Part shown: piece by piece, positions 28,144-36,051 of the stretch | How positions within the stretch are numbered: the first letter of the stretch is position 1 | Layout of the letters: each line of letters begins with the position of its first letter | DNA from: a virus | Taxonomy: Duplodnaviria > Heunggongvirae > Uroviricota > Caudoviricetes | Virus record (IMG/VR): IMGVR_UViG_2579778871_000005 | DNA: 36,051 bases | Reading direction: 5' to 3' (one strand) | Notes under the pieces: generated by a model | The model's input: the letters and a program-made list of their open reading frames with translations, nothing else | Told to the model about the DNA's origin: nothing | The model's database searches: none | Program-made: the position numbers and the translations under genes

Positions 28144-28494
28144 CTATCCGGCTTGTTTATCGGGTCGGGCCTGCGTGAGCAATCGGCCCATTTCAAGAAT
28201 CGCCCTCCGTTGTTCGGCGCTCATATCGTCAAAGGCCTCTAACAACCTTTGTTTTTCTGGTGAAAAATTTTCTACCTTTTCTGCAACCATTGATGGATTA
28301 CGTTGCCCAGTAACTACATAGAGAACATCTAATCCAACCTTTGCCCAAGCCTCTAAAACCGCACTATTAGGGAACGAAGCGCCTTTTTCCCAATTGATTT
28401 GGGAGTGCTTACCTGCGCTAGCCAAAGCAGCGAAATCAGTCTGGTTGTAACCCAACCGTTCACGTTCCTTTTTAATGCGTTCACCTTGGTTCAT
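28144..28494 (-). CDS. Prophage repressor, XRE-family helix-turn-helix protein
   Basis: 116-aa ORF with N-terminal HTH-like segment (..IKKERERLGYNQTDFAALASAGKHSQINWEKG..); divergent from the early operon across a repeat-containing intergenic region; no peptidase domain. Confidence 0.7.
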   Translation of the reverse strand: MNQGERIKKERERLGYNQTDFAALASAGKHSQINWEKGASFPNSAVLEAWAKVGLDVLYVVTGQRNPSMVAEKVENFSPEKQRLLEAFDDMSAEQRRAILEMGRLLTQARPDKQAG

Positions 28495-28589
28495 TTTTTT
28501 CTACTTTTACATTGAAAGGTTGAAAATTTTCTACCATAATCTACCACACATAAACCAAACATCATTGCATCAAACAAGGAGCCAGAACC
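28495..28589. promoter_or_regulatory. Divergent repressor/early promoter-operator region
   Basis: Candidate rightward sigma70 promoter: -35 TTGAAA (28512-28517), 17-bp spacer, -10 CATAAT (28535-28540); repeated TTTTCTAC(C) at 28497-28504 and 28527-28535 and TCTACCA at 28540-28546; AAGGA before the ATG at 28590. Confidence 0.45.
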
Positions 28590-29379: not shown

Positions 29380-30330
29380 ATGGCACGTCAAAAATCACAA
29401 CCCGCCGAACTGGTGCCGGATGCGCCGCTGGACGCCGAACTGAACGTCGGACTGAATGCGCTGGCGGAACACCGCATTGAGATTATGCAACAGTTCGGTG
29501 ACGGCCTGCCGTATGAGCGTGACCGCGTGGTGCATGAGGCACGGTTTTATATGTCGCAGAGCGCCGAGGCAATGCTGGAAGCGGGTAAGCGGCTGGTGAT
29601 ACTGAAAGAGAATGAACCGCATGGGGAGTTCACGGCAATTGTCACTGAACAGTTGGGGCTAGGTGACCGGGCTGCACGCCGTATGATGCAGGCGTCTATT
29701 AAGTACCTTTCACCTACGCTTGAGTCAAAACGGCCAACGTTGGCCGTTTTGGGTAAGGCTAAATTATTTGAACTGGTATCAGAGGATGACGAAGACCTTA
29801 CAGCATTAGCCGAAGGCGGCACCGTCGCTGGCCTGACACTGGACGACGTAGATCGCATGAGCTGCCGCGAACTCCGCGCCGCTCTGCGTGAAGCCCGCGA
29901 GGACGCCGACGCCCAGCGCCGCGTTCTGTCCGATAAGAATGACAAAATTGACAAACTCTCCACCCTGCTCGCCAAAAAGTCCCGAATCGCGCCGCCGCCC
30001 CCGGATGTAGAGGACGAGCAGTTGCGTAAGGAAGTCATGGCTATCGCCTTCGAAGCTGAAGCCATTATTCGCGGCAAGCTCTATGAGGCCTTCACCGTAT
30101 TGAATCAGCATCATTCGGAACTGGTTCAGACGCATCCCTACGCCTTTATGACGGGCCTGCTGTGTCAGATTGACAGCGCCACCACCTATCTGCGCGAAGA
30201 GTTTGGCCTTGCTGCTGAACCACGCAGTGACGCCGCGCCGGAGTGGGTAACAGACCCCACGCCAGAGATTGATCGCCCGGAATGGATGAATGCTTCAGAT
30301 TCAGAACCTGTTCAGGCGGATTGTATATGA
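29380..30330 (+). CDS. DUF3102-like early protein
   Basis: 316-aa ORF directly upstream of the transposase; motif ..GKRLVILKENEPHGEFTAIVTEQLGLGDRAARRMMQAS.. matches the pattern I associate with DUF3102 proteins of Mu-like phages. Confidence 0.55.
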   Translation: MARQKSQPAELVPDAPLDAELNVGLNALAEHRIEIMQQFGDGLPYERDRVVHEARFYMSQSAEAMLEAGKRLVILKENEPHGEFTAIVTEQLGLGDRAARRMMQASIKYLSPTLESKRPTLAVLGKAKLFELVSEDDEDLTALAEGGTVAGLTLDDVDRMSCRELRAALREAREDADAQRRVLSDKNDKIDKLSTLLAKKSRIAPPPPDVEDEQLRKEVMAIAFEAEAIIRGKLYEAFTVLNQHHSELVQTHPYAFMTGLLCQIDSATTYLREEFGLAAEPRSDAAPEWVTDPTPEIDRPEWMNASDSEPVQADCI

Positions 30331-32081: not shown

Positions 32082-33206
32082 ATGCAGATTAAACAACAGT
32101 TGCGCCAGCGTGGCATCACTCAGGCAGCAGTAGCACAGGCTACCGGGGTTTCCGCAGCGGTTATCGCGCAGATGGTTAATCACGGCCTGTGGCCGAAAAC
32201 AGAAGAACTACGGGAGCGCATCAGCGCATTTTTGGCAGAAAAAGGTATTGAACTGAAAGTGGGACAGGCAGCGGCCACTGCCTGCCCCGATACCGCATCC
32301 ACAAGGGACGAAAATATGTTACTGGCAAAACAGGTATTAAATCCAGCGGCGAAGAAACATTTTGGGCTGTTCCGCGACCCGTTCGCTGATGAAGTCATGC
32401 AGAGCGCGGACGATGTATTCACCACGCCGGATATCCGTTATGTGCGCGAGGCGCTGTACCAGACTGCGCGTCACGGCGGGTTTATTGCGGTGACAGGTGA
32501 ATCCGGCGCAGGGAAAACCACGCTGCGCCGTGACCTGGCTGACCGCATCAACCGCGAAAACGCGCCCGTTATCATCATCGAGCCGTATATCATCGCGATG
32601 GAAGACAACGACGCAAAGGGTAAAACCCTGAAAGCTGCCGCCATAGCAGAAGCCATCATCAACACCATCGCGCCGCTGGAGAACGTCAAACGCTCGCAGG
32701 AGGCGCGTTATCGCCAGTTGCACCGGGTGCTAAAGGAATCGGCCCGTGCCGGGTTCTCACATTGCCTTGTTATCGAAGAGGCGCACTCGCTGCCGGTGCC
32801 GACGCTCAAGCACCTGAAACGCTTCTTTGAGCTGGAAGATGGCTTTAAGAAACTGCTGTCGATAGTGCTGATTGGTCAGCCTGAACTGAAGCTGAAACTG
32901 TCCGAACGTAATCAGGAAGTGCGTGAAGTGGTTCAACGTTGCGAGGTTGTCGAACTGCTGCCGCTGGACAACTATCTGGAATCGTTTCTGGCGTTTAAAT
33001 TTCAGCGTGCCGGAAAAGGAGTTTCAGAGGTGCTGGATGATAGCGCCGCCGATGCTATCCGCGCCCGGCTGTGCAATTCATCCCGACGCGGTGACGTCAG
33101 TCTGCTGTACCCGCTGGCGCTGGGGAATCTGGTTATCGCTGCAATGAATCTGGCTGCTGATATCGGCGTACCCGTAGTGAATGCCGATGTGATTAAAGGA
33201 GTGTGA
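32082..33206 (+). CDS. Transposition ATPase (Mu B-like AAA+ protein) with N-terminal HTH
   Basis: 374-aa ORF; Walker A ..VTGESGAGKTTL.. and Walker B-like ..HCLVIEEAHSL..; N-terminal HTH-like segment (..LRQRGITQAAVAQATGVSAAVIAQMVN..). Confidence 0.8.
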   Translation: MQIKQQLRQRGITQAAVAQATGVSAAVIAQMVNHGLWPKTEELRERISAFLAEKGIELKVGQAAATACPDTASTRDENMLLAKQVLNPAAKKHFGLFRDPFADEVMQSADDVFTTPDIRYVREALYQTARHGGFIAVTGESGAGKTTLRRDLADRINRENAPVIIIEPYIIAMEDNDAKGKTLKAAAIAEAIINTIAPLENVKRSQEARYRQLHRVLKESARAGFSHCLVIEEAHSLPVPTLKHLKRFFELEDGFKKLLSIVLIGQPELKLKLSERNQEVREVVQRCEVVELLPLDNYLESFLAFKFQRAGKGVSEVLDDSAADAIRARLCNSSRRGDVSLLYPLALGNLVIAAMNLAADIGVPVVNADVIKGV

Positions 33207-34828: not shown

Positions 34829-35233
34829 ATGAACAGAGCACAATTATTGCGGGTTATCCATGTTGCCCGGCGAGAGCTGCGACTGGATGAGGCTACGTAT
34901 CGACAATTACTCAAAACACACTGCGGCGGGGAATCATTACGGGTAATGAGCGACTCACAACTGGCTAAGGCTTTCGCTGTGATGAAAAAACAGGGCTTCA
35001 AAGTCACATCTAAAGAGCCTCCTTCCTATGATAAGCAGTCTGCGATGATCCGCGCATTATGGAAGGAACTGGCGTCCAGCGGTACGGTTAGAGATGGCAG
35101 TTTGTCAGCGTTAAATAAGTTCGTACAGCGCCAGACAGGTGTCGCCCGGCTTGAGTGGCTGAATAATCAACAGGCTAGCCAGGTGATTGAACAACTGAAA
35201 AAATGGCTGGCGCGTGTCGGGAGGAGAAGATGA
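34829..35233 (+). CDS. GemA-like protein (Mu gp16 family)
   Basis: 134-aa ORF; ..LLRVIHVARRELRLDEATYRQLLK..., the pattern I recall for GemA-family proteins, located immediately upstream of mor as in Mu; GGAGG before the ATG. Confidence 0.55.
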   Translation: MNRAQLLRVIHVARRELRLDEATYRQLLKTHCGGESLRVMSDSQLAKAFAVMKKQGFKVTSKEPPSYDKQSAMIRALWKELASSGTVRDGSLSALNKFVQRQTGVARLEWLNNQQASQVIEQLKKWLARVGRRR

Positions 35234-35610
35234 AAGAACCGCAACAGCCAGAAATCTTTGCTGACCTTGCGCACCATGTCGCGAGCACGTTGCAAGAAAT
35301 GGTTGGAATGGAAGATGATATAGCTGAACAAATTGCTGTAGCTGTTGCTAACCGCATGATGCAAGCATGGGGCGGGCAAACCATCTACCTGCCCAAAGGC
35401 ATGGTCTTCATGACATCGGCGCGGGACTACAAAATCTGGCAGGAGTGTGATGGACGCAACTACCGCGAACTGGCGAAGAAGTACAACCTGACTTTGCAGT
35501 GGATCTACAAAGTAGTGAAAAAGATCCAGCGTTCTGAAAGCGCCCGCCGACAACTCCCATTATTCTCTATCACTGATGAACCTGAAGCAGTAAAATCAAC
35601 CCTGAAGTGA
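35230..35610 (+). CDS. mor: Mor-like transcriptional activator (Mor/C family)
   Basis: ORF 35203..35610; ATG at 35230 overlaps the gemA-like stop (ATGA), preceded by GAGGAG; C-terminal ..RDYKIWQECDGRNYRELAKKYNLTLQWIYKVVKK.. matches the Mor/C-family HTH region. Confidence 0.65.
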   Translation: MKEPQQPEIFADLAHHVASTLQEMVGMEDDIAEQIAVAVANRMMQAWGGQTIYLPKGMVFMTSARDYKIWQECDGRNYRELAKKYNLTLQWIYKVVKKIQRSESARRQLPLFSITDEPEAVKSTLK

Positions 35611-35614
35611 TTAA

Positions 35615-35649
35615 TGAAACGAGGTCGTAATGATGTTGGCCTCGTTTCA
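35615..35649. repeat. Inverted repeat (10-bp arms TGAAACGAGG / CCTCGTTTCA, 15-bp spacer) at the prophage right end
   Basis: Read directly from the sequence; starts 5 nt after the mor stop; the right arm ends in CA at 35649 and overlaps the 9-bp word TTTCAGTAT also present at 473-481. Confidence 0.5.
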
Positions 35650-35763
35650 GTATCTGAAAAGCAATTACAGAAACCGTCCCGTTAAAACTCACCTCACCCC
35701 ATCTAATCCCATAATTATCGTGCAGATGATGGTGGGTTTATCTCACTTCTGATTAGGAAGCGT

Positions 35764-36051
35764 ATGCGCGCGATCGGTAAATTGCCTAAAGGCGTGTTGA
35801 TACTGGAATTTATCGGAATGATGCTACTGGCGGTGGCGCTGCTGTCGGTAAGCGACTCCCTGTCGCTGCCTGAGCCATTTTCTCGGCCAGAAGTGCAGAT
35901 TCTGATGATTTTTCTCGGTGTTTTGCTCATGCTTCCCGCTGCGGTGGTGGTTATTCTTCAGGTGGCAAAACGTCTTGCCCCACAGCTGATGAACCGTCCA
36001 CCGCAATATTCACGTTCAGAAAGAGAAAAAGATAATGACGCCAACCATTGA
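35764..36051 (+). CDS. ybjC: Small inner-membrane protein, host gene flanking the prophage (ybjC-like)
   Basis: 95-aa ORF with two hydrophobic helices, divergent from grxA as in the E. coli K-12 grxA/ybjC arrangement as I recall it; AGGAAG before the ATG. Confidence 0.65.
   Translation: MRAIGKLPKGVLILEFIGMMLLAVALLSVSDSLSLPEPFSRPEVQILMIFLGVLLMLPAAVVVILQVAKRLAPQLMNRPPQYSRSEREKDNDANH

Follow-up and report, generated by a model that had tools for sequence, protein, structure and literature searches.

What does the inverted repeat that lies just beyond the last gene of this prophage do, and does the prophage end there? The window analysed here, that is, the whole stretch of 36,051 nucleotides, holds a prophage of E. 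coli A35 that is inserted between grxA and ybjC. A preliminary description of this DNA had placed the right prophage boundary at the repeat and had taken the CA at the end of its right arm as the candidate terminal dinucleotide of the element. In the window, the structural genes and the left-end mom/com genes are located on the − strand, a divergent gene for an HTH repressor lies near 28.1–28.5 kb, and a + strand early block that starts at about 28.6 kb encodes an rve-type DDE transposase, an AAA+ B protein, GemA and Mor. This layout is of the BcepMu type: the early operon points towards the genome end, and its last gene encodes the Mor homologue. The product of mor (35230–35610, + strand), the last gene of this rightward operon, is a Mor/C-family activator (Pfam PF08765, E 3.9e-39; annotated as Mor family protein in RefSeq), with a second possible ATG start at 35203.

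Several further features of the genome were recorded on the way. The mom/com module (499–1390) encodes a Mom-family adenine methylcarbamoylation protein and a Com zinc-ribbon protein and lies 83 nt from the left terminus. In the assembly collection, 575 blocks list exactly this Mom protein, and this type of prophage is therefore common in E. coli draft genomes, though rare in complete ones. The DUF3102-like ORF immediately ahead of the transposase gene contains a perfect 26-bp palindrome (CAAAACGGCCAAC|GTTGGCCGTTTTG, 29726–29751), which forms the most stable 40-nt fold of the early region (−20.6 kcal/mol). Another palindrome, GGTkGAAAAwTTTTCTACC, occurs twice, at 28259–28276 and at 28518–28535; the second copy overlaps the best sigma-70-like promoter match (28512–28540) beside the divergent HTH repressor gene, and both copies are likely operator sites. 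The RefSeq copy of the prophage, NZ_CP028740.1 (L108), shows small indels relative to the window, with an 8-nt offset at the right end. Its B gene, tape measure gene, gpD and others are flagged as frameshifted or as carrying internal stops, in line with either assembly errors or a decaying prophage; the B ORF of the window (32082–33206) is intact.

The inverted repeat itself is present as it had been described. Its left arm TGAAACGAGG (35615–35624) and its right arm CCTCGTTTCA (35640–35649) are each 10 nt long and are separated by a 15-nt spacer (35625–35639), the mor stop codon TGA (35608–35610) precedes the repeat by a 4-nt gap, and the right arm does end in CA (35648–35649). In + strand RNA, the stem grows inward through U·G, C-G and G·U pairs to give 13 pairs (35615–35627 with 35637–35649) and a 9-nt loop (35628–35636). 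The GC-rich core comprises eight of these pairs (35620–35627 with 35637–35644); within the arms, CGAGG pairs with CCUCG, flanked by an A-rich UGAAA on the 5′ side and a U-rich UUUCA on the 3′ side. Calculation of the fold energy, which had been proposed as a check, gave −19.0 kcal/mol for a 46-nt segment and −20.8 kcal/mol for a 71-nt segment (z-scores of −5.7 and −3.7, none of 200 shuffles being equally stable). Among the + strand 40-nt windows, the stem-loop ranks within the top 0.5% for stability. It is a strong local fold inside an AT-rich spacer. The Rfam 15 covariance models gave no match in 35400–36051 at E-values up to 10.

The ends of the element were located by comparison with the empty site of E. 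coli K-12. The window and K-12 have identical host sequence up to 415 and from 35756 onwards, with GGAAGC on both sides (left copy 410–415, right copy 35756–35761, the ybjC ATG following at 35764). The element hence comprises 416–35755, its termini are 5′-TA...TA-3′ and not TG...CA, and it is flanked by a 6-bp duplication of GGAAGC. On the left it begins with 5′-TAAAGCC on the + strand, and on the right it ends with ...TGATTA-3′ (35750–35755). To this comparison we added relatives gathered by means of their Mor protein (86–95% identical) from E. coli, Salmonella, an E. albertii-like contig, Lelliottia and metagenome assemblies. In at least 11 of these relatives, inserted beside different host genes, the common sequence runs through ...TTTATCTCACTTCTGATTA (...CTGATTA, 35755) and divergence sets in at the very next base. 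At the left end, one independent insertion (L110, found via the Mom protein) diverges exactly at 416. No second insertion with both junctions was found, and the 6-bp duplication rests on the ybjC site. Two IMG/VR relatives stop 3 nt past mor and contributed no downstream sequence. The scan of genome contigs with Mor returned a single locus, in Lelliottia, and the phage collection contained no close DNA relatives of the prophage. Among 5,426 complete E. coli genomes, the region 35450–35755 occurs in only two, in both cases as this prophage at ybjC; the other complete-genome carrier, OkiPb01694, has the same ybjC insertion and hence provides no independent junction.

The boundary therefore has to be moved: host DNA resumes only at 35756, at least 11 independent junctions agree on this, and the sequence shared with the ends of related prophages runs past the hairpin to 35755. 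The prophage boundary is thus 106 bp to the right of the first proposal, and the element extends by this distance beyond the CA at 35649, which is hence not its terminus. The empty site also answers the question whether the hairpin is host sequence that exists without the prophage. It is absent from the K-12 site and is phage DNA; a host sequence or REP-like repeat, which we had considered as a candidate, was excluded on this ground and by the occurrence in the two carriers only. Since elements with TA ends occupy many independent insertion sites, they are transposition-competent. As for other ends in the family, the related PhiKM-like, L061-like, BcepMu and L010 groups end in ...CA, and L102, L111 and L116 share the GATTA end of the prophage in the window. 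Our literature search yielded nothing usable on the duplication length of Tn552.

Near both termini we found copies of the motif RTTTATCKCRC, starting at 425, 447, 35713 and 35736, the left-end copies being inverted relative to those on the right. The left terminus with its two copies (416–457, − strand; L1 at 425–435 and L2 at 447–457) was defined by insertion L110 and by a motif scan. On the right, the inner copy R2 (AATTATCGTGC, 35713–35723, + strand) aligns with the second repeat of relatives and is a putative transposase-binding site, and the outer copy R1 (GTTTATCTCAC, 35736–35746, + strand) is an exact match to the consensus and lies 9 nt from the terminus. An outer copy at 8–9 nt from the terminus is likewise found in BcepMu, JBD25, PhiKM and L010. 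Judged by their sequence, these four repeats, and not the hairpin, are the candidate transposase sites.

If the hairpin is no end of the element, does selection nevertheless act on it? The alignment of the close clade comprised seven distinct variants. Across these the loop diverges and changes in length, and a core of nine pairs is retained: 90% of the aligned cells hold standard pairs, compared to 29–53% when the partner is shifted by 1–3 columns. Most substitutions affect only one side of a pair and go by way of G·U (C to U in the Lelliottia variant L005, A to G in L116), and inner pairs change from U·G to C-G or U-A. The G·U pairs of the variants form only in + strand RNA. On the − strand they turn into C·A mismatches, so that the fold there is weaker: the + strand fold is the more stable one in five of six variants, by 5–7 kcal/mol in four of the six and marginally in the fifth. 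Covariation within the close clade is weak, with one double change and with 38 of 500 shuffles reaching the observed score, and the Salmonella and L111 variants have lost two to four of the outer pairs. The two sides of the stem also differ in their conservation. All seven variants have nearly the same 3′ arm and next 20 nt, whereas the 5′ arm and the loop vary, which suggests an additional constraint on the 3′ arm at the level of sequence, possibly a protein site.

Most importantly, a hairpin at this place is not confined to the close clade. All examined BcepMu-like relatives in which mor is the last gene have a stable hairpin at the equivalent position. With Mor identities of 39–50%, the PhiKM-like and L061/L076/L102-like groups, KP12, L010/L009 and JBD25 each carry one downstream of the early operon and ahead of the terminus; an additional ORF separates mor from the hairpin in KP12. 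The four that were folded with shuffles gave z-scores of −2.7 to −5.7. The stems are unrelated in sequence, and a conserved T3-7CA motif directly follows each hairpin. L061/L076/L102 have a run of 6–7 U behind the stem, and the hairpin of L010/L009 is a terminator of textbook form (AAAAAACGGGCC-loop-GGCCCGUUUGUCUUUUCA). Mor-encoding phages of other layouts (L050, L091 and L097) also have a canonical terminator immediately past mor. A stem whose sequence is exchanged completely but whose place, immediately behind the last gene and on the strand that is transcribed, stays the same is characteristic of a stem-loop at the end of a transcript.

How well does the hairpin of the window match an intrinsic terminator? 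It offers a stable, GC-rich stem-loop, with its core of eight pairs in a stem of 13, and it sits at the 3′ end of its transcription unit and on the strand that is transcribed, as shown by the + strand early block, the G·U pairs and the asymmetry of the fold. The U-tract, typically at least 4–6 U in 8 nt immediately 3′ of the stem, is the weak part. On the + strand the core stem is followed by three U and the full stem by none, and the tail score is 2.7 versus 4.3–4.8 in the relatives with 6–7 U. The earlier statement that neither strand has a U-tract thus holds for the full 10-nt arms; for the core stem it does not, as UUUCAGUAU comes next on the + strand and UUUCAUUAA on the − strand. The tract had escaped notice because its U-rich part was counted as stem. 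In the Salmonella relatives, UUUUUUAA follows the core stem on the − strand, and in L111 only UUG follows the stem. The tail in the clade of the window has decayed to UUU (UU in L111). The consensus terminator scan did not list the hairpin, since the loop limit of the scan is 8 nt and the loop here measures 9 nt.

Several other readings of the locus have to be weighed against a role at the transcript end. The one proposed at the outset, in which the hairpin is the prophage end or a structure by which the transposase recognizes it and the right arm provides the terminal CA, draws on the arm ending in CA and on TG...CA termini having been described as typical of BcepMu-related elements (PMC2628397). 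It conflicts with the true terminus at 35755 and with the TA termini of the clade: the hairpin stops at 35649 and does not abut the target-site duplication. Its arms do not resemble the RTTTATCKCRC repeats, which lie outside it and are inverted at the two ends, and in the PhiKM and L061 groups, whose terminal repeats are homologous, the R1/R2 motifs are preserved but the stems are unrelated. The junctions refute this reading, and we give it next to no credence. An alternative is that the constraint acts on double-stranded DNA. The palindrome TTTCAG-TAT-CTGAAA (35645–35659) overlaps the 3′ arm and the U-rich tail and belongs to a block, T3-7CA-N-ATACTG-WAA...ATTRCA (35645–35669 in the window), that is kept after the hairpin in distant relatives (L025, L061, L004 and L010) and that is, from its sequence, a candidate protein-binding or pac element. 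The near-invariant 3′ arm and palindrome, TTTCAGTATCTGAAA (35640–35659), could then bind a phage or host protein (an accessory att-site factor, pac/terminase or a regulator), with the hairpin potential being secondary. Apart from the persistence of this block and the near-invariance of the 3′ arm and the next 20 nt beside a variable 5′ arm and loop, this reading can call on TCATTTCAGTATGTG (470–484, + strand) near the left (mom) end, a copy of the 3′-arm/palindrome sequence 35642–35656 in 13 of 15 positions. This match is suggestive only, as by our own estimate about 0.07 would be expected by chance, which is not negligible, and the left-end copy comes without a partner arm. Nor does a DNA site explain why a stable stem of unrelated sequence is ever present before the motif, or why G·U substitutions preserve the pairing. 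We consider it unlikely that such a site is the main function. A combined arrangement, in which the 3′ arm and palindrome are part of a family-wide protein-binding element (a pac, accessory att or regulator site) laid over a terminator, and occupancy or pairing sets early read-through across the att repeats into host genes, appears to us a rather improbable one.

The hairpin might also act mainly on the other strand, as a terminator that blocks host transcription entering via the right end, antisense to the early operon. The − strand tail of the window is indeed slightly better (UUUCAUUAAUC, score 2.98), and in the Salmonella relatives it is canonical (score 4.34), so that a role of this kind is possible in the Salmonella variants, but not in general: the − strand fold is the weaker one in five of six variants, and L111 and the distant groups lack a − strand U-tail, several of them having one on the + strand. 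As an account of the hairpin at large, we give a − strand terminator little credence. Finally, an inverted repeat of this kind might have arisen by chance and have no function at all. By our own arithmetic, a sequence of 36 kb should contain about 1.4 perfect 10-nt inverted repeats that fit within 40 nt, and the window has five other perfect repeats of at least 10 nt, several of them inside genes. The case for a function is thus made by position and conservation and not by the perfection of the repeat alone. As the close clade keeps the stem while the loop diverges, and as the position of the hairpin is conserved in distant relatives, a chance origin is very improbable.

We consider it probable, on the comparative sequence evidence, that the hairpin is a terminator or a 3′-end-protecting stem-loop of the early operon, with a weak tail of three U. 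The stem-loop would mark the 3′ end of a rightward early operon that runs from a promoter region near 28.5 kb through transposase A/B and gemA to mor, and would stand between the last gene and a cluster of roughly 100 bp of putative transposase-binding repeats at the right terminus. The early transcript would be ended by a weak, non-canonical intrinsic terminator, formed by the GC core stem with the short U-tail behind it and with A-rich and U-rich flanks that can pair. Alternatively, or in addition, the stem-loop might shield the 3′ end of the mor mRNA from exonucleases. Either way, less transcription would pass across the att repeats and into the host DNA (ybjC-nfsA). The sequence is compatible with efficient termination, with mere pausing of RNA polymerase and with a main role in protecting the 3′ end of the mor message, and it may be any of the three. 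This reading joins the observed position, fold, conservation and strand bias of the hairpin, and the observed ends of the element, to a termination or stabilisation and a benefit of shielding the end that we infer.

A stem-loop at the transcript end, placed behind the last early gene and ahead of the att repeats, suits phages whose early operon points outward; it would keep strong lytic transcription off putative transposase-binding sites and off neighbouring host genes. At this locus the neighbour is close. The ybjC ATG follows the insertion at a distance of 2 bp, and expression of ybjC-nfsA in the lysogen may therefore depend on the leakiness of the element. The insertion also parts ybjC-nfsA from the grxA-ybjC intergenic region, the expected place of the native promoter. 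Expression of nfsA, and hence nitrofuran susceptibility, could be altered in carriers. What was learnt about the ends of the element may prove of more use than the hairpin itself: their exact coordinates, the 6-bp duplication and the TA termini, where TG...CA has been described for the family (PMC2628397). As the TG...CA rule of thumb fails in this clade, boundary calls should use comparison with an empty site or among multiple insertions.

How does the locus compare to known systems? In gene order, with transposase (rve), AAA+ B protein, GemA and a terminal Mor, the element resembles BcepMu-like prophages, and the Mor homologues BcepMu gp01 and JBD25 gp01 are likewise encoded by terminal genes. 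It differs from BcepMu in its Mor, which is only about 44% identical to gp01, in its TA termini and in its 6-bp duplication. From the mor stop to the terminus we counted 145 nt, versus 123 nt in JBD25 and 364 nt in BcepMu. As in Mu, with its MuA sites in attL and attR (L1–L3 and R1–R3), the prophage has repeated terminal motifs (L1/L2 at 425–457, R1/R2 at 35713–35746), and 23-bp end repeats have been described for BcepMu and phiE255 (PMC2920897). Compared to the ends of Mu, BcepMu and phiE255, the hairpin lies inward of the prophage's repeats and is unrelated to them in sequence, and the termini are TA instead of CA.

Stem-loops at the 3′ terminus protect mRNA from 3′ exonucleases, for example where ends are trimmed back after Rho-dependent termination. 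Like them, the hairpin is a stable fold at the close of a transcription unit and lacks a good U-tract, and computation cannot tell such a structure from a weak terminator. In our literature search, we found no usable account of an early-operon terminator in Mu or BcepMu. Rho-independent terminators, built from an A-tract, a GC stem and a U-tract and often bidirectional, differ from the hairpin in their U-tract, which here has only three U (two in L111), and in the loop, which here, at 9 nt, is at the long end; the consensus scan did not detect the hairpin. What the hairpin has in common with them is the GC core, a short loop, paired A-rich and U-rich flanks and a position directly past the last stop codon of the operon; and at this same place, distant relatives have canonical versions.
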